From Ancylonema sp. (Eukaryota): 64,000 bases of DNA. The notes under the pieces are model-generated. The model was not told where the DNA came from. It saw only the letters and a list, made by a program, of their open reading frames with translations, and did no database searches. A program made the translations under genes and the position numbers. Position 1 is the first letter of the stretch. Every line of letters begins with the position of its first letter. Below are positions 1-47,750 of this stretch, in pieces. The stretch spans positions 1 to 64,000 of the forward strand of contig JBFLGF010000084.1 in the NCBI GenBank assembly GCA_050230475.1, given 5' to 3'.

Positions 1-572
1 CAGACTCAATATGAGTACCTTAAAAAGTTGGGGACATTGACTACCGAACAAGCCAAGATACTTCTAAATGAGTTCGTAGATTCTTGGGATCCCAAGGATC
101 TAGACAACGAATTCTATGAAGAGGCTGTGTCTAGGGAAGCGCTACGCGATGTCTGGCGAAAATACTACCGCCTTCGCGCAATTTATGACATGAAGTGCAC
201 CCGCATAACTAGACCTGGCCGTGCTCCGGTGGCACCAGATCTGAGACCAGATCCGGTAGAGGAACCAGAGGAGTTGGAGGAAGTCCTCCATCTGGTTGCT
301 GAAACTTTTCATTCGTCGCAAGCAACCTATCTGGACGAGCTCCGGAAATTCACAGCCATGCGAGGAGAGGGGCTGTTGGATCTGGCAACTCGATTCGATA
401 ATCTTGCCATCCCCCTTTTAAGCGCTCATCTCACTACTAAACGTGACGTGGCGCTGGTGCTCCGCACGCACATCCCAGTCTTCCTGCGCAAGAAGACATT
501 CGCTAAAATGGAAACGGAGGATGACAAGCGACGCATACGGGGAGAGGACCCCTCCACTCGGCAAGAGATGAT
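1..572 (+). mobile_element. gag-like fragment of DNMT-carrying LTR retrotransposon family A
   Basis: ORF 28..572 closely matches the minus-strand gag at 23216-24277 (NEFVDSWD..DVWRKYYRLRAIYDMKC..DDKRRIRGEDPSTRQEMI). Ends at N573. Confidence 0.75.
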
Positions 573-5283: not shown

Positions 5284-6270
5284 AGGGCATTGGGCTGGGA
5301 GTGCTTCAATCTGCCCTGGCTTCGGGCCACCAGATCAGGTGTTACACCTACGTCGACAAAGACGACGTGAGCCGACGTGTGGCGGCAGCGATTCTTCGAA
5401 AACTCAAAAAACAATTCCCGGACCAGCTCTCAGATGCTGCCCTCCTTGGATTTGATGCTAGACTGCCTCGGAACATCGATCAGTGCAGTCCCACTTTTCT
5501 CACTAATCTGGTCGCCAATAATGGGCCAGTGGACGTGCTTGGAGCCACTTGGGAGTGCTAGAGTGTTAGCCGCGCGGGATACCGTCAAGGAATTCATGAC
5601 CCACGCTTCCGTTTCTTCTTCAATATGGTGGCAATCATCAATTTCTTCCAACGGGAGCAAAAATCCCCCCTAATATACATCCTCGAAAACACTTACCCCG
5701 GGGAACGGTGCACGACAGCTGTGCAGAATGCCCAAAATCTGGTGCAGGGATTTCTGGGAGCACCCATTCCCCTTGATGCTGCGGATATGGGATCGGTGGC
5801 GCACACAGTACGGCTGTACTGGCAGAGACGGCTCCTGACTCCAGAACTTCTTCAAGCCACTATGCCAAAGATGATGGTGCCCAAACCCACGCTGCGCTGG
5901 ATTCTGGGGCCTCACCACGTTCCTACAAAACCTGGTCACACAGACGAGCGTCCTTTTGCACCTTGGAACGTGGTCGGCCAGACTAGAATCTGCATGCCAA
6001 CAGTGGTCTCCTACATTCGGAGCAACGCCTACCGCAGCAAGTCCAATGGGGAGCCTGGAGAGGGCGAGGTTTTCAATCTGGCACGGGAGGAGTGGGAGGA
6101 GCCAAACTGCCAGGAGAAGGAGCAAATGATGGGCTACATGGCAAACGAGACGGAGTGCCCCCACGCATCAGAAGCAGAACGCTCCATGCGCCTCGGTCGA
6201 GCCCTGGCGTGGCCTGGATGCCAACGTGATGCTACACTTAGGAGCAGTGTTATTTGTTGCCCATGCGTAG
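5284..6270 (+). pseudogene. DNMT3/DRM-like C5 cytosine methyltransferase domain in Ty3/gypsy pol (family A, copy 1)
   Basis: GIGLG (end of motif I), YVDKD (II), DVLGATWEC*SVS (IV; stop 5559-5561), YILENT (VI), HTVRLYW (VIII), EKEQMMGY (IX), RLGRA/LDANVM (X, frameshifted). Confidence 0.85.
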
Positions 6271-6499
6271 GAGTCCCTCCCCACTCAGCTTGGTTCATCA
6301 ACTGGGGGAGGGGCCACCTTGCATCCAGCCTACGCCAGCATCCACTACCTCCATCCCCTCAAAAGCATGGTTTCAACCCCACCCTCATGCGTCCCATCTA
6401 CATCAACGGTCCAGCGCGCAGCAGCCGGACGTATCGTTTCCGCACTTCTGGCATCCGATATGCCCACAAATGCAGCCAACCCACCTGAGGCGGAGGGGG

Positions 6500-6826
6500 G
6501 GAGAGTCAGAAGTCCACCTCAGCGAGATAAACAAGAAAAAATCAACGTGGGAGCCAGCCTTCAGGAGCAGGACCAGCCCAGAGTCCTGACCATGCTGAAC
6601 GCGAACAGTGATCGATTTGCATTCAGCATCGAGGATCTGGAACCTTCGAAGTATAGCGGGGAGCCGATGCAACCGGAGCTGACTTCAGACAAGCCGATCT
6701 TCCGTCCCCCGCACAAATTGGGTCAAGTGGAGCTCGATTTTGTGGAGGCCTAGTGTTCCAAGTTGGAGAAGCTGGGGTTCATCAGAAGGTCCCCGCAATC
6801 CCAATATGCATCCGCTACAGTGGTAG
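6500..6826 (+). mobile_element. N-terminal part of Ty3/gypsy reverse transcriptase directly after the DNMT
   Basis: ..FAFSIEDL..ELTSDKPIFRPPHKL..EA*CSKLEKLGFIRRSPQSQYASATVVV, a typical gypsy RT start. Interrupted by an LTR at 6827. Confidence 0.8.
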
Positions 6827-10870: not shown

Positions 10871-12022
10871 ACCCTCCCTAGTTGGCCGATCGGTAATCCC
10901 AGTGGGCTCGGCCCTTGGACCAGATTACGGTCGTACACCCAACGGGAGCACGCGGCAGCCGCGGGGTTTCCGAACGGGGCTCCCAGCAGGGTTGACGCCG
11001 GGGGCGGTCAATTTGCAGGAGCCGCTTGCAAAAACCCTGCCTCCGCCAAGCACCTCGCACGATATTATGTCATCCATAACGGAGATGGAGACAAAGAAGG
11101 GGAGACTTGGGACCAAATGTGCTGAGTTGAAAGCTCAGGTGCAGGTTGTAATCAAGCATCAATTGCCATAGGGTCAGGCTTTAATGGTGGGGGGACCCAC
11201 AACAAGTCAAGATTTGAGTTCAGTGGTCACGCCGGGAGGGCTGACACTAGGCGAGAAAATGAGAGCCCTCGCTGTCTCTCTTGTAGCACAGGCCCACACA
11301 AAGGTTCCTGATGTCGAAGAATCCCCTCAAGTCTCATCTAACAAGAGGGCAACAACAAACTGGAATGTGGTAACATTGCCAAACGATGATGGCTGCTTCA
11401 CAATGGACGGCATCATTTTGATGGACGCAATTGTCGACACGGGGGCAAAGAAAATGATGATCTGTGCAGCAGACAACACGTCGACAACGCCAACAAACTT
11501 CAAGACAACCTGCAGAAGAACAGTTCGGAGCGTCACACTCGGCAGCAGATTCCGCATCGACAATCCCTTCTTCACCGACAATCCAAGAAATTATATGCAG
11601 CAGACAAGTCAAGAAAAACAACAAATCGACAGAAGAGGTGCATGCCACAAGAGAAACTTTCCAAACTCAACGGCAACACCTTTCCCAATGATTTGCAAGA
11701 AACAATCTTGGATCAAGCTATGGCCCTAAGGATGAGCAATGGCACCAACGCCAAAGATTGCTTCGAGAAGTCAACAAACACCTGGAAGTGCTCAACGCAA
11801 AAGTGTTGGAGAGGGAATATCTGGACTCCATCGCACTCCGGAAGGAAAACATTATCCCTGCAATGCCAACAAGAGAGACACTTTCCCCTTTTCAACGCCA
11901 AATGGCTCAAGCAACGCAACGAGCAGCAGTGGAGCGAGCAGTAAGAGAGATTCGCTGCATTCTCATGTTCCAGCATACTAGTGGCACATCTCAAGGCAGG
12001 CCACAAAATCAGCAAGCATAAA
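10870..12022 (+). mobile_element. family B retrotransposon fragment: aspartic protease plus the linker that precedes the DNMT
   Basis: AIVDTGAKKMMI protease motif at about 11430. 11680-11955 is homologous to 41478-41667 plus 46870-46975, which lead into the DNMT at 47140. Confidence 0.7.
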
Positions 12023-17029: not shown

Positions 17030-17770
17030 CCCATACAGATCCTCGTCTGTCTAACGATGTTCCATGGAGAGAATGGACGCACATCCGTGTGGCCAGGCTT
17101 GGTAGGAACATGGTGGGGTCCCAGGATCCAGCGAAGGGTGGAAGTGGGCACCATCATCTTGGGCAAGGCAGCTTGCAGCACCTCAAGTGTCAAGAAGTTT
17201 TGCTAGTAGAGACGTACCCGATGGGCCGCCGAGCCCATGTCTGCCGCGTCAAGGAGGATTGGTGCACCCAAAAAATCTTGTACCAAATCCTGGGCATTTT
17301 GAAATGCCTTCGTGTAGCGGTCCCCGGGGTAGGTATTCTCCAGGATGTAGATAAGCGGCGACGTTTGCTCCCACTGAAAGAAGTTGATGATCGCCACCAT
17401 GTTGAAGAAGAACCGGAATCTGGGGTCATGTACTCCCTGGCGGTATCCGGCCCTGTTAACACTCTGGCACTCTCAGCTAGCACCCAACATGTCGACTAGG
17501 CCGTGTCTGGCCACCAAGTTTGTGAGGAAGGTAGGGCTGTGCATTGGTCTATGTTTTGCGGCAGGCGATCTTCAAATCCATGGATGGCAGCATCTAGCAG
17601 CTGGTCTAAAAACTGATGTTGAATCGTGCGAAGAACTGCCGCTGCCACGCATCTGCTCACATCATCTTTGTCGACGTACGTATAACATCGAATCTGGTGG
17701 CCGGAAGCCAAGGCGGACCGAAGTACCCCCAATCAGATGCCTCCAAACAGTTCCAAAACATGGAGACCGT
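17030..17770 (-). pseudogene. DNMT3/DRM-like methyltransferase domain (family A, copy 2)
   Basis: GLHVLELFGGI* (motif I), YVDKD, DMLGAS*ECQSVN (IV), YILENT (VI), AHRVRLY (VIII). Collinear with 5284-5980. Confidence 0.85.
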
Positions 17771-19193
17771 CTTGCAAAGATTAGGGCGCTAGTTGACATG
17801 TGGTGGTGTTGGTGGGGATGGCGTTGTACATCTCTTGTCCCACCCAAGACGAGGTCGGGTGGATGGGATCTGGATGGAGGTGTTGAGCTTGCCGCAGGCG
17901 AAGTATGGCATTCTCCCGTCGGGTACGGTGGTTGGTCACCACCGCTTGCAGTTCAGCTGCAATGGCTGCGTCACGTAAGCGAATGGCTGCCATCTGATGT
18001 GGAGCGGCATGGTAGCCTACTTCTTTGTCCTCCTCCTCCTCACGGATTTGGTCGTAAACCGTGCCTTGCACGTCTAGCAGGTATGCTGCTTCGTCGATCA
18101 AGCCGACCATGAAGGCAGTAGCTACCACTGGAGGAGTGGAAGTGTGACATGTGGCAGATAGAGAAGAGGATTTCAGTCTACTGGATTTGTCAAAGTACCG
18201 ATAGGTAAATTGTTCTAGTATAGGCATCATAGATTCCCTTGGCTGCCCGTATGAACTCCATTCCCAATAAGATATCATAGGCAGGGGTGTCTATGATTGA
18301 AGCATGAACCAATCGCCTATGCTCATGAGGGGTGTTTCTGGCACGGACAAATTCAAGGGGTTGAGGAGTGGTCCCACGAGAACTGGCCAGCGCTCCATCA
18401 GCCGTGATGAATTCGATGCCGCGCACCAATGCGGGGGATGTTCACCCCCACGGCTACCGCATAACGCTTGCTCATCATAACACAAACCGCTCCCGTGTCG
18501 ATGATGACTTGTTGGGGGATGCAGTTGTTTACGTCGAGTACGGCTTTAGAGTTGTCAAGCAAAAGTGCGGCCGCGTGTGTCTTGGACATCTCCTCCTTTG
18601 CTACCGCAAGTACAACTTCTTCTTGCTCCATCCTCGGATGTCGTTCCTCGTTCGTGGCTTTCTCCCAGATTGCTGCTGTCAACTCAGCCAGGAGCTGCTG
18701 ATTGTCGTTGATTGAGGTCTGAAGACGTGCTGCTGCTTGGAGTGGAGTCTTGCCTTGCACGGGGTCCCCCCCCACAGATAGTGGGTCCGGGAACGTGTGG
18801 TCTGGCGGGAAGTGGAGGTTAGTGGTTCTAGGGTCCAAGCTGGAAGCGGGCAAGGCATGATGAAATGTCTGGGGAAGATGACCGGCTCCTGTCCGCTATC
18901 CTGCGATGTCATCTTCTTCCTCCTCCTCCTCCTCCTCCTCCTCTTGTTGTGGTGTACCTAACGGGACAGCTGCGGGGCTAAAGCGGACTCGACGGACAAT
19001 CTGAGTGGCTTCCTTGGTAGTTGCGGTCGGTATGGACACACGTATGGATCTGCGGCTGGCCACTGCAGCATGTGCTGGTCGAAGGTAGGTGAGGGCCATG
19101 GTCTGGTACTTGTAATCTGGCGAGATCTGGGATCGCAACTTCTTCCTCGCTTGAACAGACATGCCGTCCATTCTTCTCTTTTGGATGGACTCT

Positions 19194-22100
19194 TGTAAGG
19201 AGCGGAACTTTAGTGCGGAAAGGGGAATATAAGAAATGGAAGGAAGAAATGTGAAAGAGTAGAATATGATGAATAGGAAGACAAGGGACGAGAAATGGGA
19301 CGAAAGAGGGGGACGCACTTAAGGGAACACTATTACATGAGTTGATAGGAACGATCGAATAGATGTTCCTATCGTGTCTTAAGTACTATTGGGGAACTAG
19401 GAGGGACGGAGACTCTAGTGTAAGAACAGTAACTACTCAAGCGAGCGAAGCGAATCGAATAGCTAACGGGAAATACGAACGGTGACTACTCAAGCGAGCG
19501 AAGCGAATCGAATAGCTAACGGGAAATACGTCGGGATAGAACTAATGACTATGTGTACGGAAACTTAAAAGCTAAGCGAAACGAAAGTTAAGCGAAACGG
19601 AAGTGAAGCGAAACGAAAGTCAAGCGAAACGGCGGGCGGAATTCCCGTCGGGCTAAGTATCGTACTCTACTTAGTATCGTACGTTAGGAACACACTAGTG
19701 ATCCTAACAGGATCCCCCGTTAAAAGAACAAAAGATGATATCGGGGTTTCAAAGGAAATTCAATATAAAAGATATATTGTGGACGTGGAAGACTGAAGTG
19801 GAAAGAACGGACTAGAAATAAAAGATTTGAATGGGTCGGAACGGTGGAGATGCGCTAGATTGGGAAAAAGAGACCAGAAACTAAATGCGAAAAATTGGAT
19901 ATGGTGAAGTGGAGCCCCCCGCGGATTGGTTGAGGACGTGGGACGGAGGTGACTGGAAGGACGAGATGAGGGGAATCCTGAAAAGGACGCTGCGCCGTTG
20001 GTTCGGAAAGAGTGGACGGTCGCGGGAGGGGAAAATAGTGGAGAAGGCTTGAAACTGAAAATCGGGTTACCGAATTGAAAATAGCGATTTTGGCCAAGAT
20101 TGGATGGAGAATAAAAAAAAGAGGGCAGAGACGGGGCCACACCCAGGGATGATCGCCAGACCGAGGTTTTGGAGGGTGAGGGAAATATATGCGCGACGCC
20201 GATGAATGCGAGATATTGGACGGTTGCAGGACGGCGATTGTTGGAGGGAGCCACGCCGGCTTTGAATGAGAATCTCGGGACCGGAGTCACGTCGGACCAT
20301 GCACCATGGACGAGAAAGGGTGCCGATTGACGAAGCCATGGTGATGGAGTAGCAGTCGGCGTAGTTGGAGTGACGGAAAGGGCTGCGTGGATGTCATGGA
20401 GATCGGAGGACGGACGGCTAAAGAAGGAGGAGGACGGGCTGGCTGAACAGGGCCGTGGGTCGGGTAGGACGGCGGGGATGGGACCCGGAGGCTGGCGGCT
20501 GGAAGGGAGGGAGAACAGGCAAACACGAAGGTAAGGGGACGGATGGATGATAAAACAAGTAGGGTGAATCTTGTGGGATGCCAATAGCGTGGATGCCAAC
20601 AGCATAAGCTAGGTGCCCGGGGTTCGACTCCCCGGGGGATTATAAACATAAAAGCAGAATGTAGTAATAGAAAGAATGATGAATGTAGGGTGTATGACAG
20701 GAAAAAAAAAACGAGCTTGTGGATTGCTGGATACGGCAGCTGGCATGGTAGGGCGGTGAGCATGACAGGGTGTTGTGGTAGACGCAGCAGCGCTGTTTGA
20801 TGGGTAGGTAAGGCTGCAGGATTGGGGGGGGTTTGGTGGGGAAGGTGATGGAACAGGGCGGCATGGGCGAGACCCAGCGGCTGGAGGGGAGAAAGGGATT
20901 GGGACCGAATGTGGTTCTGGTTCTGATTCTGGTTCTGATTCTGGTTGAGACGCTGGTTCTAAATGTGGTTCTGGTTCTGCTCTTGTTGTTGCAGCTTGTT
21001 GTGGTTCTGGGTCTGGTTTCGATTCTGGTTTTGGATTCCGGTTCTGGATCTGGTTGCAGGGACTGGAGCTCAGGGCGTGACCTGAGGCTGGATGAGCTGG
21101 ATTTGGGTCTGGGATTGGGGATGGGTTATGGGTTTGGACTGGTTGCAGGACGGGAGCGGGGGCGGGAGCTGGCGGGGTTTGGCGGCTTGGAGAGATGGGA
21201 TAGAGGGAGGAGGCGGAACAGAGTGGCAGGTAAGGAGTGGAGAAGGGGAAGGGGGATGGGAGGGGCACGACAGCTAGGACGGGACCCGGCGGGATGGAAG
21301 GGAGGTGGGGGATGAATTGGTGCAGGGCAGGGAGGCTGGGGCTGGGTGGCAAGGAGGGGGGGGGGTGGGGCAAGATCTGGCGGCTAGGGGGAAATGGAGC
21401 TCGGATGGGGCCTGTCGGGACAGGTAAGGTGCCGGGAGGGGGGGGGGGGCTCTGGAATGGGACCTGGCGGGGCAGGATGGACCTGGCGGGGTTTGATACA
21501 GGGCGGCTTCGGCTGGGAGAGATGGGATAGAGGGAGGAGGCGGGACAGAGTGGCAGGTAAGGAGTTGAAAAGTGGAAGGGGATGGGAGCTCTGGCCGAAC
21601 AGGTTTGATGAGATTGAGGGGGAACGGGGATGGGAGGGCAGGACAGCTGGGACGGGACTCGGCGGGATGGAAGGGAGGTGGGGGAGGAATTATTGCAGGG
21701 CGGGGAGACTGGGGCTGGGTGGCAAGGGGGGGGGGGAAATGTTATGGGGGCAGGATCTGGCGGCTGGAGGGGAAAATGGAGCGGATCTGGTGGCTGGAGG
21801 GGAAAATGGAGGTGCTGGGAGGGGTGGGGGGGCCTGGGATGGGACCTGGCGGGGCAGGGAGGATGTTGGGGGGGGGAAGGGGAAAACTGGTGGTTGGAGG
21901 GGAGGGGGAACTAGGATGAGCCCTTGCGGGGCAGGTGGCTTGCTGGGAAGGGGGTTGGGGTGTTTCTTGGAGGGGCGGGAGGGCTGGCAGAAGTCTGGCA
22001 CGTGTCGTTGAAGCCGGTGTATGGGAGGGGATTTCAGGCCGGTTAGGGGACGTAGGAAGATGGACAGAGTAGGAGGAAGTAGGGAAGATGTGGACTTTGA

Positions 22101-23215
22101 AGGTCTGCTGTGGTAGGGTAAGGAGGGGGAATGGATTGAAGAGGATGATTGTAGAAGTGAGAATAGGATGAAGGGGAGGGGGGGGGGGGGGGCAGAAATT
22201 GGTATGTTGGGATATTTGAGACGAATTAATGTTTTATGCAAATTGCTGAGTTTTGTTGGTCTGAATGCTTTGCGCTGAATTGTTTTTGCGCTGAATTGTT
22301 TTAATTCATGAAGATTTTGAGGGCGGGGATGATTTTTCGGAAATGTAAAACACTAAATTCTGATTGAAGACGGGCCACGCGGCAGTCTCCTCCACCATGT
22401 GGTGGCGAGTTGAGCCATGAGAAAAAAAAACGGGAATAAAGAAATGGAATAAGATGAGGGAAGGAATGAAGGAAAAGGGAGGAAAAATAATGAAAAAAGA
22501 AAAATGGAAGAGAAAGAAAAGGATAGAGATAATAAAAAAAACGGCAAATGGCGAGAAAAAATGAAGAGAAGAAGAGGGAGAAAAGAAGGAGATGAAACTC
22601 CCAAAACAGAAACGAAGGAGACGGAACTCCCGAAGCAGAAACGAAGGAGACGGAACTCCCAAAACAAGAAAGTTTATTTCCTATCAAAGTGTAGTGTAAG
22701 GAGCGGAACTTTAGTGCGGAAAGGGGAATATAAGAAATGGAAGGAAGAAATGGGAAAGAGTAGAATATGATGAATAGGAAGACGAGGGACGAGAACTGGG
22801 AAGAAAGAGGGGGAAGCACTTAAGGGAACCCTATTACATGAGTTGATAGGAACGATCGAATAGACGTTCCTATCGTGACTTAAGTACTATTGGGGAACTA
22901 AACTAGGAAGGACGGAGACTCTAGTGTAAGAACGGTAACTACTCAAGCGAGCGAAGCGAATCGAATAGCTAACGGGATACGAACGGTGAGTCCTCAAGCG
23001 AGCGAAGCGAATCGAATAGCTAACGGGAAATACGTCGGGATAGAAATAATGACTATGTGTACGGAAACTTAAAAGCTAAGCGAAACATAAGTGAAACGGC
23101 GGGCGGAATTCCCTTCCGTCTAAAGTCAAGCGAAACGGCGGGCGGAATTCCCGTCGGGCTAAGTATCGTACTCTACTTAGTATCGTACGTTAGGAACACA
23201 CTAGTGATCCTAACA
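19194..23215 (-). mobile_element. non-autonomous LTR element (LARD-like, family D)
   Basis: LTRs 19194-19709 and 22695-23215 (TG..CA), 5-bp TSD ACTCT, purine tract next to the 3' LTR. The 3-kb interior has no gag or pol motifs. Confidence 0.9.
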
Positions 23216-25164
23216 ACTCTGGTATCTGTTTTGGATGCTCCTTCCAGAATTGTGCTAAGGTGTGTCCTTCCTTTTTGCAGCCCGAGCAGATGACGTCCTT
23301 CGTGCAGTGCCCGGCCAGCGGGTCGACTTTCGTCGAGGCTGGAGGTGCTGGTTTTGCCTCTTTGGGATTGGGACAATTCCTTGGCGATGTGGCCTTCGTG
23401 TTGACACCGATGGCATCTCCGGTTATGAGTGATGCTGGGATCCACCACCCTACTCCCCAGGCGATCCTTGAGTTGTACTCTTTCTCCTAACCGATCTGCC
23501 ATGGCCCTCTTGGGTCGTGCATCCACCACCACTTCCAGGGCAGCGTTGACGGGAGCATGGGCATCATAGGAGCAAGGATCGGTGGAGCGAGGGGGTGGAA
23601 TCTCTCCACACTTGCGCATTTCAGCTTCGTGGGCGATGATGTTCATCTCCACCTCACGGGCGATGGCAATCATTTCCTGGCGCGTGGATGGATCTTCCCC
23701 CCGAATGCGTCGCTTATCATCCCTGAGTCTCCATCTTGGAGAAGGTCTTCTTGCAAAGGAAGACAAAGATGTGTTTTCGGAGCACCAAAGCTAGATCACG
23801 CTCGGTGGTGAGATGGGCATTCAGAAGTGGGATGGCCAAATTGTCGAATCTAGTTGCCTGATCTAACAGCCCCTCGCCCGGAAAAGCTGTGAAATTCCTG
23901 AGGTCATCCAGATAGTCTGCTTGCGAGGACTGAAAAGTTTCAGCCACAATTAGGAGGAATTCTTCCAACTCCTCGGGCTCCTCTTTCGGATCTGGCCTAA
24001 GATCTGGCACGACTGGGGCTCGGCCAGGTCTGGACATGCGGGTACATTTCATGTCGTATATAGCTCGAAGACGGTAATATTTTCTCCATACATCTCGCAC
24101 AGGTTCCCTGGGGACAGCGTCCTCATAGTACTGGTTGTCTAGATCTTTGTGGTCCCAGGAATCCACAAACTCATTTAAGAGTCTTCGAGCCTGACCAGTT
24201 ATAAGGGCACCCAACTTCTTTAAGTATTCATATTGTGATTGCCCCCGTGTGATGTGTCTCTGAGTATCCTCCTGCAAGTCTTCCCAACCTTGCCTAGCTT
24301 ATCGGAAGAACCACTCTTGCAAGATACCTGGTCCACCCGAATACAGGGTGGATGCGGTTGCCAAAATCATTCCTGACAATTTTTTTTTTTTATTTTTTTT
24401 TTTTTGTGATAACACTTGGTCAGATTATATCCAAGCTTGACAGTGGCCGGACGTCCCTAAACTCGAAAGATCTTCTCGATCACTAGTTGCTGATCGGTTC
24501 TATGGCCGACACTAAGGTCCAAATGCTAGACGACAATAATAACGACCAATGCGACATGGTCACTGCTATCGCCGACACCTAACAAGCATCCGTACATAAT
24601 TGCATGTCCTTCTAAGGCCTATCTCAACACATTGCCTGTTCTATGCCTTAGCTAGAATATTGCGGCTCACGTCACTCGTTGTCAGATGCACTTTAACGTG
24701 TCGCGAAGCGACAAACATGTTCGCGCCGCCCAAGGCTTTCTAACGGTAGTCTTGGCGATCGCGGAGACGTCCCAATTCTCCCAACGGTTGGGTGAGGATC
24801 TTGACTTAGCTAGCTCCGTCTCAGGCGGCGGTCATGGCGGGGACACCTGACCAATGATTCCCCTAACCGAGTGCACACTCACGCCCCTCCTATTCCGTCT
24901 GTACGATTGGCTTGTTGCAATGATCGCCCTCTAAACTTTAAAGTTCCTCCGTGCTATACGAATAATTAAACCAACATATAGTATTCTGCCGAACCTAGGT
25001 TGCGCGGGTGTTTCCGCCGAAACACAAATTTCGCAGTCAAACAGGCGTTTTGCAATCAAACATGCGTTTTGTAAGGACCTAGCCCAAGGCAAAATTAACC
25101 CGTATCATATGAGTTAACCGCCTTATTGGCATTGTATAAGCACACGAGTGTTTATGGCATGACA

Positions 25165-32885: not shown

Positions 32886-35062
32886 CAAGGGGCCACGGGT
32901 GGTTGGTCTCTCAGAGATCGTATGTAATTGACTTGCGCCAAATCGCGTATCCACCACTCAACACTCGAACTCTCCACTTGGAGGTGCGAGCAACTAACAT
33001 TAAATACCGTTCGCAAATAAAGTTTATCAAATAAATGATGTCTGATTTCTTCGAAACTTAAATGCTCCCCGCCTTCCCGAGGCACACCCACTTCATGGAA
33101 GTGTGTCGTGTGGATCTGCAAATCAAAATCACACGGTGAGAAAATGGAATGAGTTGCTTGCAAACGGCAACTTTCCGCCGACTTAGGTTTCACACATTGT
33201 ATTCAAAAGCGCACCACACCAAATGTCCCATATTGCCCACCTCTCTCGGGTTGTAAATCATCTTCCTCCCCCCATTAGCATTGGTGCAAAACCGGGGATC
33301 TGGGTCTTCCGCGTCATGACACAAAATTTTGGGCCAATGATAGACCATTCTCTCCACCGTCATCGTTGACTTTTTGCTCATCGGGGACCACCTGTTGCTC
33401 CCAAACAAGGGGGGACCCGCACGGCACATTGCTGTGGAACACTCGAGCGTGCCATGTGTCAGCCACGGACGCCCCTCATAATTGGCCAACACGTTGAGGA
33501 GCGTGCTGGGAGGGGGAACAAACATGTACTCGTCCCAATTCAGCACCAACACCCACTTGGCCTTCGCTCGGTTCCGGTACAAGCAATCATGCAGCGACAA
33601 AATCTGCACCCCACCCAAAACCCCAACCCGAACCCCCATCAGCAACACCAGCCACTACCCATCCCCACTATCCCCCCCCCCCCCCCCTTGTGCGAAAAAA
33701 TCCGACTCACATGACCACCCCCTAGGACCTCGTACTTTGGAATCTCCCGAAAGGGGCACCACATCCACCCGTCCCGAACTAGAGATAAGGGACCAAGTAC
33801 TCCGCGACGACATGAGTTAGGGCCCCTGCATCGTATAGCGTGACGTGTGTGACTCCTTGAGCTGCGTGGTACTCGACCCACTCCACCATGGGCCGGACCT
33901 CCACCTCCTCCCTTCACACATGGGGTGCATACACTCGCGTAGTGACTCAACTCCTCGTCGCGAGGGGGCTCGATGACGTACTCGTGACCGGGCGGTTCCC
34001 TGACACCCGGTTATCGAGGCAAGGGTGAGGGTGAGGTGGTTGCGGTTGAGGTTGAGGTTTGGATCGTGTTACTGTGTTGAGTTGCATGTTATGGGTTCGG
34101 GTACTAGGTTTGGGGTTGTGGGGATTATGTGAGGTGAGTATGCAGAGAGGCTTACTTGTAGAGTACGATTTCTTCGGCATCGATTGTGGCGAGGGCTGTC
34201 CCCCCGCTTGTATTGGTGGATGAGATGAGGAGGCACTGGAGGAACGAATGAGAGGAGGCCACGTGTCAAATCGTGGGTTGCAAAATTATGATGAGGTACC
34301 GAGGTGTGGGCGTGATATCCGAACACAAATCCAAGCATGCGCTCCCTTTTGAGTTTGCTGTGTGGTAGGAACCCAACCTGAATCACGACAGTGTCGTAAG
34401 TGAGGTCCCCATGCTCCTCAGAATACAAAACCTGCGCTTCTCCTTCCACCCTTCCCCCCTCCGCCCCCTCCCACCAACACCGCGTCAAGCTCCTGCCATC
34501 AAAACCCCAAAGAGATAAGGTACAGTCAGCAGGTGGGTCCAGTTCCAGTTACTAATGAGGTGTCGCAGATGGGGGGGGGGTGGCTCACTTTTGAAGAGAC
34601 TCCTTCATCACTCGCGCTCCCAACCCTACAGACGCAATCGCGTTTCCTTGCATGCGGTATGCACTGAAATGGATGTATCCGTAGGGGCCCCTGGAGGCGA
34701 CCTGAGCCGAACCAAAAACCCATAACCCTGAGTTTTTGCATCATTACTGATTTGCTCCTTGCTTGCGATCTTCCCCTGCCTGCTCCTGCCTCCATGTAGG
34801 GACACATCACAAAAAAATTCGGGCTCTTTTTTTGCAGAAGTTTTTTTTGTTTTCTGTTTTTTGTTGTTTTTTCCTTGCGATTTTGAAACCCTAGTACCTT
34901 GAGGCGCGAAGAATCGTGTTGAGACTCGGGCTTCAGGAGCTCCAATCTTTGAAGGTAGTGAACGTACCCTCGCCACTTTCCATCATCCCCGTCATCGCCA
35001 CTGCTCTGGTTGCTGAGCGACCCCAGAACTACTGGGGCACTACCTGCCACATTCAAGTCCAT
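32886..35062 (-). pseudogene. GT92/DUF23 glycosyltransferase (GALS-like), frameshifted
   Basis: QILSLHDCLYRNRAKAKWVLVLNWDEYMFVP, GRKMIYNPR, QIHTTHF, RCWWEG..YDTVVIQ. Frames broken in 33650-34620; exon limits approximate. Confidence 0.6.
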
Positions 35063-39392: not shown

Positions 39393-41477
39393 TGTAATGC
39401 TGACATGGCTTATCTAGACCAATGAGTGAACAGATCGAAACACTACGCTAGATCGTCTAGCCTAGACGAAATCGACTGGCGGTCAGATAAACTGACGACA
39501 AGTGAAACGGAACCGGGTGGCGAACCGGGATGCTAGCACATGTGACATTATCATACTCAACACACCCCCCTAATGTTATATGTGCTACAATCGATACTTG
39601 AGAAAGACCCTACCAAAATTAAAACATACCCAACAGCTTCTTGTTGTATCGAACCACCGTTACACTGGCATGCTTAGTGAGCATGTCAGCTCCCATCTGA
39701 TTTGCATGGCATTTCTCCACTGTGATTTCCATCTCCTGATGCACTCACAAAGTGATACCTCGCCAAAATTTGCTTGGAGCGCGGGTGGTACATCGGGCTA
39801 TGGACGATGTCGATGGCTCGCTGACTGTCCGGGAGAATCTGAATGGGTCGGTCTACAGCTCCCCTGCCTGCCATTTGCATCTGCAGCTGATGAAGGTAGC
39901 TTGCCTCTTGGGTTGCCATCGACAGTGCCATGTATTCGTTTTCGCAGCTGCTAAAAGAAGCAGTCCCCACCAGCTTGCTTTGCCGACTGATTGCCCCCCC
40001 AGCAGACATGAACGCGAACCCCGCTCGACTCCTGCCTGTGTCTGGACAGGTGAGATAGCTTGCATCGCTGATACCCCAGATTTCAGTGCTGGCCCCTCTC
40101 TTACAACAGATTCCCCCATCTTTTGTCCCTTTTAGGTACCTGAGCACATGTTGGATCCCGTCCCAATGTGCTCGTCCCGGGTCAGTGCTGAATCGATTGA
40201 GCGAGCTGATAGCTGCAGAGATGTCCGGACGAGAGCATGTCGCAAGGTAAATCAGACTACCCAAAGCTTGCCGATAAGGAACATATGTCATGGCCTCCTT
40301 GTCTGCATCATTTTGAGGGGAGTCTTGCTGGCTGAGCTTGCTTACAGGAGGAAGGGGTGTGCTGACCGAGCGACAGTCCTGCATGTCGAAATCGCGAGAA
40401 CCTCTCCCAAGTACTTTTCTTGCAGCAAGTAGATGTCCCCATTTGGCTCCAGTCTGATTTCCATGCCCAAAAAGAATTTAATTGTGCCAAGGTTTCTGCC
40501 AAGCGTAGAGGAGGCACTCCACGATTGCTCCGATTGCTTCGACGAGGAGAAGTTGTCTACATCGATGAATCAGGTATGATGGCAGGGCTGGCTGGTAGGT
40601 TGGCAGGCTGGCTTGCTGGTGCAGGGACGGCGATAGCAGGTGTGAGATCAGGATCCATGGAGAGGTCGGCGATGTCTGGAGGCGTCATGTCCAACTCCAG
40701 GTTGGAGAGGTGCTGTAGGGAGTGGCGCCGTACAGGTGAGCAGATCTGGGAACTCGACATCCATGTCGCCTTCATCAGCTCCTGGCAATCTCCACCACCC
40801 TGGCTTTGCCGTTTCAATGAAGTCTGGGGAGCTGACGTTGTACACCATTGCATTCGATGGATCCCAGACTCGATACGCATTGAAGGTGTTGTTGTAGTTG
40901 ACCAGGGCTTCCATGTAGGCCACTGGCTCGAACTTTCCACCTCGCTTACTCTTTTGGATCTGACAGGATGCCTTGTTGCCAATGATGTGTAGTTTGGAGA
41001 GGTCTGGCTTGTGACCCGTCCACTTTTCGATTGGTGTGCAGGACATGTTGGAGACAGTAGTCAGAATGCGCAGGGTGTTGGCTGCCTCGAAGACTTCTCC
41101 CCAAAGTTAAGCAGGCACCTTGACTGCTATCATCATGGTCCTGCACTTGTCCTGCAGCGTTCTGTTGAGTCGCTCATTGTGTTGCTCTCAAGGGAGTAGG
41201 GAGGGGTTGTTTACAGGACGAAGCCTTCTCTGGCCAGATGACGTTGGAGAGCGAGAGAGGTAAACTCACCACCATTGTCAGATCGGAGGAAAAGAAGTTT
41301 GTATCCCGACTCATTCTCTGCCACTGGCAACTAGTCTAAGATAAATGAGTGAACAGATCGAAACACTGATGGTAGGCTAGACGGAATAGACTGTCAGTCA
41401 GCTAAACTGACGAGACGCGAAACGGAACTAGGTAGCGAACTGGGAGGCTAGCACATGTGACATTATCATACTAAACA
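39393..41477 (-). mobile_element. internally deleted copia (second LTR family)
   Basis: Similar LTRs at about 39393-39562 and 41335-41477, PPT at 39563. Integrase remnant RSDNGGEF, RT/RNase H VPYRQALGSLIYL..SDASY. gag-PR and the RT core are missing. Confidence 0.85.
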
Positions 41478-41667
41478 CCTTTCCCGATGGTTAACCAGAA
41501 ACTGTCCTGGATCAAGTTATGGCCCGGTGGATGAGCAATGGCACACTCGCCCAAGAGTGCTTCGAGACGTCAACAATCACTTGGAAGTGCTCAATGCAAA
41601 AGTGTTGGAGAGGGAACGTCTTGACTCAATCGCAGCTCGGAGGGCCAACGTCATCCCTGCCATGCCG

Positions 41668-44600
41668 TGTGAAATACTCATTTTCTCTTATGAGTATTCG
41701 TAAGGGTGCGAGATGTAACTTAGATCATTCGCATACTTTGCTCGGAATAGATCACTTAGAAGTATTAATTTATCTTTGGCTGAGTACAAGAGTAAGTCTC
41801 TGCTCGAATAAGAGGATAGGGCGCGGCGGCGGAGGCGGCGCCAAGCTGACCAATGAGGAATCAGCTTGGTCCGATTTAAGTTCTGACTGAATTTAGCGAA
41901 TCTAATCCGATACGAACTTAACGAAATCGCGTGTCCATATTGCACGATTTCGTACTTCAAAGCACGCGTCACACTTTAGCATTACACACTCAACACACCC
42001 CCTTAATGTTAATTGTGACAAAAAGTAAAACTGCCGAAACTAAAAAACTAACGTAACACATGACAAATGCTACATCAACCAAAATAAAACATCACGTGAT
42101 AAAACTGGACACCCTACATCATTCTAATCAACTTTTTGCTATAGCGAACGACTCCCACACTCGCATGCTTAGTCATCATGTCTGCTCCCATATTCCCCGC
42201 ACTGATTTTAACGAAGTACATTCTCCACCCTGTCGCGCACGAAGTGGTACCTGGCCAGGATTTGTTTCGTGCGAGCGTCCGGGTTGTGCACGATGTCCAG
42301 TGCCGGCTGGCTGTCCACGAGCACCTTACAGGTACTCCCACCCCAACGTCCCCTTGCATTTGGAGTTGGGAGTTGTCGCAGAAAGATGACCTCCTGTGCT
42401 GCTTCGGAGAACCCCATGTATTCCGATTCGCAAGAGCTCAGACTGGCATTCCCCAACAGTTTCGACTGCCAGCTGACCGGACCACCAGCCGATAGGATCA
42501 CAACAAACGCTGCTCGGGGGGAGCGTGAAGTGTCCGGACAAGTAAGATGGCTTGAGTCGCAGTAACCCCACAGAGCAGTCGAAACTCCCTTCTTGAAACA
42601 GATACCCTCCCCACACTTGGTGCCTTGCAGGTATCGCAGCACATGTTGGACCCCCTCCCAATGAGCCATGCCGGGGTTATGGTTGAACCGACTGAGGCAG
42701 CTGACAGCTGCGGAGATGTCTGGTCGCGTACAGACTGCCAGGTACATAAGGGATCCAATGGCACTTCGGTAAGGGATGGCTGCCATTGTTTTCATGTCTG
42801 GTGCAGATGTTGGCGAGTCCGTCTGGCTGAGTTTGCAACCAGGGGGCGGAGGAGTGCTGGCTGCCCGAGGGTTGACGACCGGGTACCTCAAGAGCACCTC
42901 TCCCAGGTACTTCTCCTGCAGCAGTTGAACATCCCCCCCTGGTAGGCGCCTGATCTCCATACCCAGTAGGATTGCAGCACCGAGGTCCTTCATCCTGAAT
43001 CTGCTGTGCAGAAAACCTTTCACCCCTTCGATGAGCTCCATCACCTTGCCGATGACAAACATGTCATCGACGAACAGCCCTAGCAGGATCCGGCGCCCCC
43101 CCTGATGGATGGCGTACACGCAGAAGTCGGAGGTGAGTCGCTCCAGCCCGAACTCAGAGAGTGCCGCCTTGTCCACGTGCATGTTCCACATGCGGGGGGA
43201 GTGCTTCAGGCCATACAGCGCCTTGAAGAGCGGAAGCACCTTCCCGGGCATCTCCACCCCGAACATCCCCTCTGGAATTTCCAGGTAAACCTCCTCCTCC
43301 AAGTTTGCGTACAAAAACGCTGTCGTCACATCATCCAGCTGTTCCATATGCATCCCCTCTGATGCAGCAGCTGCAAGCATTAGGCGTATGCTTTCAAACC
43401 TGGCTGTTGGGGAGTACGTTTCCGTGTTGTAGTCGATCCCCTCAGCTTGCATGAAACCCCCGTGCGACGAGGCGCGCTTTATATTTCTGCACCTCCCCCG
43501 ACAGGCCCCTCTTCCTCTTAAATACCCATTTGCTTGTGATGACAGGGTGACGAGGCCTGTCCACCACGGTGAACACCTTGTTCTCCACCAGCGAGGCCAC
43601 CTCCGCCACGCACGCCACCAACCACCGCTCCGAGTCAGGTGACTTCATGGCCTGCTTGAAGGTTTTTGGGTCATCTGCAAAACTCTCCATCGTAGCCAGC
43701 ATGAGCATGTCCTCCATGTACCGCGGAGGGACGCCTCGACTCTCCTAGGAGCTGCGGCGCAGGGCTGGGGCAATTGGAAGGGGTGGGGGCTGGGCTGCAG
43801 AAGGGTTCTCGTCGACTGGGGCCTCCGCCGGGGCTGGGACCGCGGCTGGGGCTCGGACCACGGCTGGGTTTGTTTTTGCGTCTAGGACCGCGGTTGGGGC
43901 CTCTTCTGGGGCTAGGAATGCGGCTGGGGCCTCTGCTGGGGCTGGGACTGCGGCTGGGGCCCCGTTGCAGGTTGGGGCACCGTGTGCTGCGGTCGGAGGC
44001 ACTCTTGAGGCGGGTGCGCTTGTATTTGCAGGTGGGGGAGGAGCAGCAGGGAAGACGAGCGGGTTTTCTTCGACGTCTTCAACTCCAGCAACTGCTGACG
44101 AAGGTGCGCGCCACCAGCTTGGAGGAGCAGCTTCATCGAAAGCGAGAGCAGCGACGTCGTACACCTTTTGCCGCTCTGTGTCCCACACACGGTAGGCAAG
44201 GCTGTGCGACGTGCAGCCCACCAAGACACCGATGAAGCTCATTGGTGCGAACTTGCCTCCTCGCGCAGACTTTGGGATCTGGCAAAACGCCTTGCAACCC
44301 AGCACCCTCAGCTTGGAGAGGTTGGGCTTTTGCTCTGTCCACATCTCTCACGGCGTGCAAACCAGGTTGGTGGCTGGTGACATGTTGCGTAGCATGTTGA
44401 TCGCGTGCAGCACCTCAGCCCACATGTAGCTAGGCAGCAACGAAGTTGACATGACTGTTCTGGTCTTGTCCTGCACAGTGCGGTTCCACCTCTCCGCCAC
44501 GCCGTTGCTCTCCGGGGAGCGAGGGGGTGTGGTCTGCAGCTGCACTCCCAGCAGCGCCATTGACGACTTGTACGCGTTGGAGGTAAACTCCCCCCCGTTG

Positions 44601-46869
44601 TCAGAACGAAGCTTGAGTAGCTTTGTTTTGGACTGCCCTTCTGCCACCCCTTTCCACTCCATAATTATGCGAGCTGCGTCAGACTTCACACGTAGCGTAA
44701 ACACCCATGAGAATCTTGTGAACATGTCCATGATGCCTAGGAAGTAGACCGCTCCCCCCAGACTGCTGGGCTGGACTGGACCGGCCAGGTCCATGACCAC
44801 CAGCTCGAGTGCGTAAGTAGTCCCATGGCTAAAGGGGACGGCCGGGTGTGGCGGTCGAGTCAGTTTGCCCATGGCATGCGTCGCACGGGCTAACTGCACC
44901 AGAGATCTGACCCAACCCTGTTGCCATATTCCCATACAGGAGTCGTCGGAGGGCCCCCTCTCCACTGTGACCGAGACGGCGATGGAGCATATCCATGGAA
45001 AGCGAGGTGCTGAAGACCTCCACGCACCGGCTGGAGGGTAGAGAAGGAGTCGTAGATAGTATCTTGCAATCGAGAGTTAGTCGCCCAGTCTTAGACTCTG
45101 TCATTAGGGCCACCATTCCTCCCCTAGCATTCTAGATGACCGTTTTTCCTGGAATCTCGTTGAACACGTAGACAAAATTTGCTGCCCGCAGAAGTTGTAA
45201 CGAGAGAATGTTGAAATGCATGGATGGCATGTAAAGTACATTTTCCAACCTCAGTAATTGTGTCCCCGATTCTGCGTCCACCTCTAGAATGAATGTCCCA
45301 CTGTGCGTCACATAAACACTGCCATCGACATGATTGACCTGGAATGGTTCTGAAAGGGATGATATCGTGCAGAAGTAGGATGTGTCGTGACATATGTGAT
45401 GGCTGGCTCCAGAGTCAGCCAGAAAGTTGCTTGACAGGGCTGAGTTGACATAGCTCACAAGTACCTCACCCGCTTGCCCATTTAGCACCCCCGACTGTTG
45501 CATCTGCACACTATGATGAGAATCACTGTGTGCAAACTTTGCAACAACCGCATGGCCACCATGAAAGAATGAAGCCTCCCCACTTGCTCCACTTTGCATC
45601 TGGTCCTTCTTTCGCTTGCACGCCTTCTCAACATGGCCATTCTTTTTGCAGAATGTACAACTCGCCGACTCCGCCTCCGGGCAGTCGCTTGCGTAGTGTC
45701 CCTTCTCTCCACAACAGTAGCACATGGTGTAGGTAGTTGGACGTCTGCTAACACCGGCCTGATTTGCATTACCCCCCTTGTATTTCTTCTGCACCCATAA
45801 CACCTCCGCCTTGGCCACCTCGGCCTTAACCAGATCTGCTAAGGCAGCCGATCAAGGAGGTGGGGCAGATTGCCGTTGGTAGTCATCATCATCATCCCTC
45901 ATATAGCGGCGAAGAGCTCCTCGAGGTCCATTCTGTCATTGGGCCGAGAGTGCAGCCATGTCCGTCCTCTTGAGATGCACGTACCGATCGTTGGGTTGAT
46001 CAAGGAGTTGCCGCTCCAAGATGTCATCCTCCAAACGGACCTTTTGTTGCCTGCAATTTGGCCATCACCGACTCAAAACCTGGATATCGTCTCCTCCTGC
46101 GGTTTCTATTTCCTGATGTTGAAACTGGAAAAGGGCCTTTTGGGCTGCAGATTTTTCCCAATTCTGACACACGTGCGAACTTTCGCTCAAGCTTGGTCCA
46201 GATGGCGACTGGATCATCGAGGAGTGTGGTGATCGCCACGAGCTCAGTGTCAGAGATGGACTCAGCTAGCAGGCACGCTGCCCTGGTGTAGTAATCGATG
46301 TATCGGTCGTACTTGTCGGCAGCGATTGTCGCCGCCTCGATGGCTTCCGGGGTTGCCACTTCCACACCCAACTCGTGTACTCTTGGTTGCGGCGGTCTGA
46401 CGCGATCCTCGTTTACTATGTCCCAGACCTTGTTGACCAGTTATCCCTTTTAGTCTGGCTGACCATTGACTATAGTTGTCTTTATTAAGCTGGTTACTTG
46501 TTGCCCTGAATCGGGTGCCATCGGATGACACGGCTCTGATACCATGTGAAATACTCATTTTCTCTTATGAGTATTCGTAAGGGTGCGAGATGTCACTTAG
46601 ATCATTCGCATACTTTGCTCGGAATAGATCACTTAGAAGTATTAGTTTATCTTTGGCTGAGTACAGGAGTAAGTCTCTGCTCGGATAAGACGATAGGGCG
46701 CGGAGGCGGAGGCGGCGCCAAGCTGACCAATGAGGAATCAGCTTGGTCCGATTTAAGTTCTGACTGAATTTAGCGAATCTAATCCGATACGAACTTAACG
46801 AAATCGCGTGTCCTATTGCACGATTTCGTACTCAAAGCACGCGTCACACTTAGCATTACACACTCAACA
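41668..46869 (-). mobile_element. full-length Ty1/copia retrotransposon
   Basis: LTRs 46545-46869 and 41668-41995; PBS TGGTATCAGAGC (46533-46544, tRNA-iMet); PPT. gag knuckle CYCCGEKGHYASDC, PR DSGASHH, HRRLGH, RSDNGGEF, FVDDM, RNase H. Several frameshifts. Confidence 0.97.
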
Positions 46870-47119
46870 AACGTCATCCCTGCCATGCCGCCACGAGAGA
46901 CACTTTCCCCTTTTCAACGCCAAGTGGCACAAGCAGCACAACGAGCAGCAGTGGAGAAAGCAGTTCGAGAGATTCACAACAAGCGTCGATGGATGAGAGG
47001 GTTACAAATCAAAGCATAAGGCCTTTCTCTCCAGCCACTCACCAGAAGTGTGGAGCCTAGGTCCGGGGATCCCATCCTTCAAGCCGAGGCCATCGATACC
47101 ACTCCTATCACTTTCTCTC

Positions 47120-47750
47120 AGCTTCAACTCCAAACCGGCCTTCATTTGGTCGAACTTTTTGCTGGCGCCTGTTGCAGCACTCTGCTCGCACATTTCATGG
47201 CAGGCCACAAAATCAACAAGTACACAACTGTGGAGAAAGATCCGGTGGCAAGAGGCGTGTCTTGTCAGTATGTCACCAATCTCCATCTACGCTTTCCACA
47301 CTTGCTACCTCTATCAGCAATCGAGGGCTTCGACACAAGGTTACCTGACCATGTGGAGTCCGTCAGCATCACAGTGTTAAAGAATTATGCTGCTCGCCAC
47401 GGTCAGATCGACTTCGTGGGAGCCGGTTTTCCTTGCCAGCCAATGAGTCCTGCAAGAAATGGACTTGGAGTCAGAGACGATCGTTTCTCTCCATTCTTCG
47501 ACATGACAATAATTTTGACTTGATGCCAACGTGAACAGCAAGGTCGACCATTTCAGTACCTGCTCGAGAACGACCATCCATCGACGACCTAGCCATCTGA
47601 ACAATGAAAACATGAGGTCGGCAAATACCTTTCTTCTCGCATTCCCTGGAGAGCCTCTCCTCCTGGATGCAGCTTCAGTTGGCGGTCCCACGCATCGACT
47701 TCGGCGCTACTTGACAAACATCATGGCAGCCAACAAGTTACAAAATTCCA
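47120..47750 (+). pseudogene. C5 cytosine methyltransferase domain (family B)
   Basis: GLHLVELFAGA (I), TVEKD (II), IDFVGAGFPCQPMS (IV), QYLLEN (VI, after stop 47521-47523), LLDAASVGGPTHRLRRY (VIII). Truncated at the C-terminus. Confidence 0.88.

Follow-up and report, generated by a model that had tools for sequence, protein, structure and literature searches.

The 64,000-nucleotide window that we analyzed (Ancylonema sp., contig JBFLGF010000084.1, positions 1 to 64,000) carries two copies of a retrotransposon family, here called family A, together with remnants of a related family B and several other insertions (Table 1). Both family A copies have decayed; they belong to a high-copy Ty3/Gypsy family in which the Gag-protease open reading frame (ORF) ends in a cytosine methyltransferase of the DNMT3 fold (DNMT domain). 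Copy-level evidence comes from protein searches and from contig pile-ups of public runs, one of which placed 12,178 contig pieces on 1.65 kb of copy 1. The runs that contain this stretch carry labels of ice or glacier metagenomes or of a coded organism, and the only relative with a name is a Closterium protein, so the host is likely a zygnematophyte-type alga of glacier ice. In intact relatives, about 1,200 residues long, a single ORF encodes the methyltransferase together with a zinc knuckle and an aspartyl protease, and the reverse transcriptase (RT) of relatives finds its best match in Ty3. Copy 2 preserves this whole ORF in decayed form: gag runs from 24346 to 23208, is interrupted by a younger LTR element, and the ORF resumes at 19192 and ends at 17032, where a Copia-like piece breaks the domain ahead of motifs IX-X. 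The Pfam gag-asp_proteas match to its protease is weak (E 0.017). Copy 1 has private damage that includes the motif IV stop, a change of the first motif VIII Arg to Thr (5805-5807) and a frameshift near 6207, and its pol is interrupted at 6823 by another LTR. The gag remnant at the left edge of the window is probably the 5' part of copy 1; the ends of the family A element are lost within the window.

Table 1. Coordinates of family A and family B features and of the insertion in copy 2 (window positions)
Feature	Position	Strand	Details
Family A gag remnant	4..546	+	76% identical to copy 2 gag
Copy 1 DNMT3-type domain, motif I truncated	5286..6270	+	Family-wide ORF stop at 6268-6270
Copy 1 motif IV, G-A-T-W-E-C-stop-S-V-S	5541..5570	+	Glu 5553-5555, catalytic Cys 5556-5558, stop 5559-5561
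Copy 1 motif VI, E-N-T	5685..5693	+	
Copy 1 pol start (pre-RT region)	6271..6822	+	BLASTP E 5e-7 to 2e-4 against pre-RT regions of relatives
Copy 2 DNMT3-type domain, motifs I-VIII	17032..17768	-	Stops; frameshift near 17537-17539
Copy 2 motif VI, E-N-T	17332..17340	-	L-E-N-T from 17343
Copy 2 Cys+19 codon (Phe), motif V	17410..17412	-	Position co-varying with the pre-Cys residue in distant relatives
Copy 2 motif IV, G-A-S-stop-E-C-Q-S-V-N	17455..17484	-	Stop 17475-17473, Glu 17472-17470, catalytic Cys 17469-17467
Copy 2 end of Gag, aspartyl protease and linker, frameshifted	17769..19192	-	tblastn with intact P0057/P0072/P0073
Younger LTR element (~4 kb) inserted in copy 2	19194..23215		Repeats 19194-19709 and 22695-23215, 92% identical
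Copy 2 gag with zinc knuckle region, frameshifted	23208..24346	-	tblastn with intact relatives
Family B related linker and DNMT remnant, canonical G-F-P-C-Q (47425-47439)	46957..47749	+	Pro 47431-47433, Cys 47434-47436

The ORF stops at one and the same residue in 59 of the 61 family proteins that reach the domain end. The family A methyltransferase does not share an ORF with RT and RNase H; the Gag-protease-DNMT ORF stops and pol comes next. At 6268-6320 of copy 1, the TAG is followed four bases on by a 10 bp hairpin and then by the start of pol in the same frame, with the hairpin modestly better than those of shuffled sequences (z -1.5 to -2.2). In this one DNA copy, the arrangement looks like stop-codon read-through at 6268, which would place the methylase at Gag levels.

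Elsewhere in the window, the family B domain has Pro at both Cys-1 and Cys+19. Its protease-linker-DNMT element is split by a Copia element at 41662-46872, with the other part at 41474-41666, and a second family B remnant lies at 11172-11953. Family B has one database relative, P0085. Nested Copia-type elements (576-2312 and 39421-46872) belong to one LTR family (repeats at 1929-2312, 41662-42041 and 46539-46872). Probable host gene fragments lie on the reverse strand at 33190-34550, one of them matching glycosyltransferase family 92 (E 1.3e-7).

The initial annotation of this sequence had placed a Glu before the catalytic Cys of both family A copies, with stops at different codons of motif IV and E-N-T as motif VI. 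All of this was confirmed, on the forward strand for copy 1 and on the reverse strand for copy 2. The copies are 74% identical across 703 bases, and each stop is private to its own copy. In summed contig depth of run X1, a measure that differs from copy number and was used solely for shares at single sites, the Gln codon (C at 5559) accounts for 112,592 of 115,289 (98%) at the copy 1 stop, and the Trp codon at 17473 for 33,592 of 33,899 (99%) at the copy 2 stop. W-E-C is present in 45 of the 46 database family A proteins matched by motif pattern, a count that includes near-identical cluster members; the other one has W-D-C and none has P-C. P0023, found outside the pattern matches, likewise has WEC. 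In family A, the Cys follows the motif IV Asp by 8 residues, just as it does in DNMT3A/3C and five phage enzymes, so the Glu occupies the exact position of the Pro with no insertion or deletion in the loop. Cys-3 is Ser in family A, a position held by Gly in 145 of 148 distant relatives. As a separate observation, a CAG/CTG site that spans the Trp and Ser codons shows C-to-T changes on both strands, at 17474 and 17476, in 17-19% of depth (run X1). CHG methylation of silenced copies by the host would be expected to give this pattern, and one of the two changes makes another stop.

Comparison of the two copies over 230 codons of the domain gives pN 0.10, pS 0.74 and a corrected ratio of 0.035 (bootstrap 0.023-0.081, from the 1,251 of 2,000 replicates with finite dS), of which only ‘far below 1’ is a safe reading because dS is near saturation, a single pair is compared and decay after insertion is included. 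By codon position, the differences between the copies number 34 (first), 21 (second) and 122 (third), and the ratio for gag in the same copy comparison is 0.083. Around motif IV, 24 of the 34 sites that vary among many copies are third codon positions among the rows listed, in which the Glu codon varies solely at its silent position; among the rows listed from four runs, there were no first- or second-position variants of the Glu or Cys codon. Judged by these codon patterns, the domain is under strong purifying selection, and the 0.035 of this one pair lies within the Ka/Ks under 0.2 of Gypsy-DNMT3 elements. The initial annotation had suggested a dN/dS comparison and had regarded the motif as a family trait and not as decay. 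With a domain far from neutral and no P-C among the family proteins, that view is supported.

A structural model of the intact relative P0003 (pLDDT 82, pTM 0.84) best matches DNMT3A/3B/3C (Z 26.7, rmsd 3.0 over 276 residues), with M.HhaI behind at a Z of about 22.5, and the top 50 rows of the structure search are all DNA enzymes. DNMT3 enzymes are the closest known structures as well as the closest known sequences, sharing the unpermuted motif order and a motif X of the G-R type, although they have G-S-P-C and E-N-V at about 22% identity, and family A lacks their PWWP and ADD domains. Intact relatives score 27-36 bits against PF00145, for which the cut-off is 22, while the broken copy 1 falls below it at 19.5. 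The catalytic Cys (motif IV), Glu (motif VI) and Arg-x-Arg (motif VIII) are present in the family alignments, the first Arg being lost privately in copy 1. The losses that mark dead paralogues, of Cys, Glu or Arg or of the S-adenosylmethionine (SAM) motifs, are not seen, as all of these are kept; what is absent is the canonical Pro-Cys and E-N-V, replaced by W-E-C and E-N-T. Motif X of family A also has an Arg, as counted in 61 listed proteins that extend this far; the list had been selected on this motif.

A profile search of 1.84 billion representatives using alignment A4 found 522 clusters (50% identity) at E under 1e-30; alignment A3, dominated by RT and integrase columns, was dropped. We counted residues in the best 150 of these 522 clusters, 149 of which span the site. 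The residue before the Cys is Glu in 94, Pro in 43, Asp in 5, Ser in 4 and Gln, Cys and Asn in 1 each, and the 94:43 proportion is not a census because these are the best 150 of 522 from a profile of mostly Glu types. The catalytic Cys is present in all 149. Glu types keep the Cys (94/94), the motif VI Glu (94/94), both Arg residues (93/93), the motif II acid (87/87) and the motif X Gly (77/77), and the Pro types have nearly the same record (Cys 43/43, motif VI Glu 43/43, Arg 43/43 and 42/43, motif II acid 43/43, motif X Gly 39/40). Motif VI among the 149 is ENT in 68, ENV in 44 and ENA in 23. A few members (P0214, P0233, P0252, P0259, P0260 and P0267) have an altered motif VI Asn (EDV, EHL, ECV, EHV or ESN) or Asp, Ser, Gln, Cys or Asn before the Cys.

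On a FastTree phylogeny of 143 rows, computed with motif columns removed and rooted at the midpoint, Glu and Pro exchange 16-17 times, compared with 36.5 for shuffles. The trees took in element domains and five phage enzymes only. A single origin of Glu was rejected on this tree, since at least six of the changes are forced by well-supported branches. Family B, with Pro, groups with family A at only 86/80 and 91 support. Phage records yielded only distant Pro-Cys enzymes at 22-34% identity, with none found in phage records by a second query, and of six pattern matches in viral contigs none was confirmed.

The strongest partner column of the Glu/Pro exchange is Cys+19 in motif V, which we take to be Leu100 of M.HhaI, counting from its Cys81. 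The residue here is Leu in 34 of 43 Pro types and Thr or Ser in 78 of 94 Glu types (Fisher p 2e-16 for Leu), and Pro is paired with Leu in all five phage enzymes. A tree-based test of correlated change gives Cys+19 a likelihood ratio of 49.5 (4 df), compared with a maximum of 22.4 and a median of about 3.5 for 131 of 133 background columns; Cys+19 had itself been chosen post hoc as the top-scoring column, and its residues were binned by hand. Simple linkage does not explain the association because the columns between Cys-1 and Cys+19 score at most 14.7. The runner-up in this test is the residue after the motif X Gly, which is part of the SAM site. Among the 17 Pro groups on the tree, Cys+19 is aliphatic only in 12, Thr only in 3 and mixed in 2. 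An independent-pairs test was not significant (6 pairs, 3.5 the same way and 0.6 opposite, median p 0.375). The exceptions are 14 Glu types with an aliphatic or aromatic residue instead of Thr/Ser (full rows) and 6 Pro types with Thr. Family A is itself an exception, combining Glu with Phe or Tyr, so the argument from compensation reaches it only indirectly. We also considered E-N-T as a partner of Glu, a tie that proved weak once the tree was allowed for (ratio 14.9, similar to the top background columns).

Elements of this type have already been published. KnitGypsy-Dnmt3 of Klebsormidium nitens carries a DNMT3 domain in a Gypsy Pol with Ka/Ks under 0.2 (de Mendoza et al. 2018, PMC5890265). 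Like family A, it is a Gypsy LTR element from a streptophyte-type alga and carries a DNMT3-related domain that lacks introns and evolves under purifying selection. In KnitGypsy-Dnmt3 one ORF encodes the domain along with RT and RNase H, whereas in family A the domain ends the Gag-protease ORF. Family A would work like a Gypsy-DNMT3 element, having the main features of that class except for the ORF shared with RT. The article text states that key residues of the KnitGypsy-Dnmt3 domain are conserved and makes no mention of a change at the Pro; expressed in yeast, the domain gave no methylation, a result for which the authors' own word is ‘inconclusive’. The same article reports CG de novo methylation in yeast by SymbioDIRS-Dnmt3, another DNMT3 borne by a retrotransposon, although this is a DIRS element of dinoflagellates and an independent capture. 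Such elements are also mentioned for streptophytes, with other captures added, in PMC12344493 and bioRxiv 10.64898/2026.05.21.726589, the accessible text of which holds nothing on a Glu-Cys motif; that of PMC7022712, PMC9940879 and PMC2927531 holds nothing on replacement of the Pro before the Cys. In openly accessible articles, our searches turned up neither a C5 methyltransferase described as having Glu-Cys nor any mutagenesis of the pre-Cys Pro, although Supplementary Figures 3 and 13 of PMC5890265 may already show the motif. Within this scope, the Glu itself seems to be new, as do its recurrent exchange in step with a motif V residue and a clade of this size with two layouts.

This departure from the canonical motif is milder than it seems, because loss of the Pro is tolerated elsewhere and because the relatives switch back and forth. 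In M.HhaI, P80 and L100 are named as SAM-binding residues, and the active DNMT5 of Cryptococcus has polar residues, Ser439 (in Ser439-Cys440) and Thr462, at these positions (bioRxiv 10.1101/2021.10.01.462825). DNMT5 differs in having Ser instead of Glu and in belonging to a separate family with an SNF2 ATPase, so that the parallel would be one of convergence. Pmt1 of S. pombe is likewise active without the Pro, having PSCQ (PMC5372726), although it is a tRNA enzyme of the DNMT2 family. Published non-Pro precedents, as far as the accessible sources go, have Ser or Ala and none has a charged Glu. The initial annotation was right about the change itself and weighted the departure from the canon too heavily, given that DNMT5 and Pmt1 make loss of the Pro compatible with catalysis.

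We favor, as the more probable account, that intact domains are working C5 methyltransferases with a cofactor pocket rebuilt around Glu, packaged with Gag and acting on the cDNA of the element. The exchange is likely to be an alternative build of a working enzyme and not damage, because it recurs in many relatives and usually comes with a second change in the cofactor pocket. The usual chemistry would be kept, with the Cys attacking C6, the motif VI Glu protonating N3 and SAM donating the methyl group. In most relatives, the hydrophobic Pro/Leu pair lining the SAM site would be replaced by a polar Glu/Thr(Ser) pair; in family A, the pocket would combine Glu with Phe/Tyr and the invariant motif X Arg. 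The enzyme would be packed into the particle with Gag, freed by the protease, and would then methylate the element's own cDNA, a role proposed for this class (PMC5890265). CpG loss lends no support to self-methylation because methylase-free neighbors are depleted too: family A is depleted no more strongly than the Copia and Gypsy elements nearby (junction CG 19/28 and 6/12 versus 29/42, 9/20 and 9/20).

A bolder extension of this account, which we regard as conceivable but on balance improbable, is that Pro/Leu and Glu/Thr flip back and forth across several hundred algal retrotransposon lineages, the Glu build either serving as a conditional switch, with SAM bound weakly until the domain is released from Gag or encounters new cDNA, or yielding another product or acting on another substrate. 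Family A would then represent a third build (Ser-Trp-Glu-Cys with Phe/Tyr), loaded at Gag levels ahead of a read-through stop. If the conditional switch is correct, transposons would have converged on the gating of DNMT5.

Gating can also be considered on its own. A polar pair could weaken SAM binding and leave the enzyme off until it is activated, for example when the protease releases it or when it binds nascent cDNA in the particle, comparable to the ATPase gate of DNMT5. The same two positions are polar in DNMT5, and its authors argue that this makes SAM binding regulatable (bioRxiv 10.1101/2021.10.01.462825). Silence of the isolated KnitGypsy-Dnmt3 domain in yeast fits with a gate, and the ORF layout suggests that gating would protect the host's own DNA when the methylase is produced at Gag levels. 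Family A, however, lacks the Thr at Cys+19, and a gate would not be essential because Pro/Leu types persist in the same architecture through 16-17 switches. Overall, we consider gating an unlikely alternative.

Less probable again is a change of substrate, by which an RNA or RNA:DNA intermediate would be methylated rather than double-stranded DNA. The domain sits in a particle that contains RNA and hybrids, according to general retrotransposon biology, and Pmt1, one of the known non-Pro enzymes, methylates tRNA (PMC5372726). Against this, the fold is nearest to DNMT3 and not DNMT2, as also seen in the top structure matches, and the co-varying columns are in motifs V and X instead of the target recognition region. 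Loss of the Pro is also no marker of RNA specificity, since DNMT2 enzymes mostly keep it.

There is little to recommend a pseudo-enzyme that only binds and thereby shields or targets the cDNA, an option raised by the initial annotation. Two further loop positions of family A depart from the canon, and the inactivity of KnitGypsy-Dnmt3 in yeast would fit. Yet the Cys, the motif VI Glu and the motif VIII Arg pair are invariant in Glu types as in Pro types, and the catalytic and SAM markers overall are as conserved in the 94 Glu types as in the 43 Pro types, which argues against a binding-only role; pseudo-enzymes such as DNMT3L and DRM3 lose these residues.

Marginally weaker, and in our judgment hardly credible, is a changed chemistry in which the Glu acts as a built-in acid or base, or in which poor SAM occupancy leads to cytosine deamination and a RIP-like mutator. 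C5 methyltransferases can deaminate cytosine when SAM is lacking. A Thr in motif VI is shared with RID/Masc1, which have EQT/EET (PMC6709928), but RID also changes the motif VI Asn, which is kept in E-N-T of family A and in 90 of the 94 Glu types. The weak tie of ENT to Glu on the tree and the CpG content of family A, no lower than that of methylase-free neighbors, also speak against it. Finally, decay or sequencing artefact has next to no probability: both window copies are pseudogenes with stops and frameshifts, but Glu-Cys occurs in 45 of 46 family proteins, including full-length ORFs, and in 94 of 149 distant relatives, and the intact ORFs rule it out.

Pro-Cys is the textbook signature of cytosine methyltransferases, and annotation based on this motif would call the Glu-Cys domains dead. 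Here, a charged residue has stood in place of the Pro over long evolutionary times with the other catalytic residues all kept, which is a reason to reconsider the silence of the published Gypsy-DNMT3 domain in yeast. With many matched natural pairs of Pro and Glu relatives and a candidate partner residue, the role of the Pro becomes directly testable.

Gypsy-DNMT3 elements are also far more diverse than the one published family, with 522 clusters and at least two domain orders. In the first layout, RT and RNase H precede the DNMT domain (19 of the 22 long members that were scanned), integrase and PHD follow it in most cases, and both Glu and Pro types are found in the RT-RNase H-DNMT arrangement. 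The second, Gag-protease-DNMT followed by RT, is that of family A and a Closterium-type group, and in P0272 and P0233 of the latter the domain continues into RT in one frame. In L003, L004 and L005, Glu-Cys lies within long open Pol frames that also encode RT, RNase H, integrase and PHD. The element at L001:1975-9320 has identical terminal repeats of 127 bases and a 1,798-residue frame with a Glu-Cys DNMT, integrase and PHD; a search of this frame for RT and RNase H found no matches, and it is possibly a young non-autonomous element that kept the methylase. Besides PHD, some Pol proteins carry extra modules, including a weak Chromo (L005:7439-14902), Tudor-like domains (P0082 and L004) and a G-patch (P0151).
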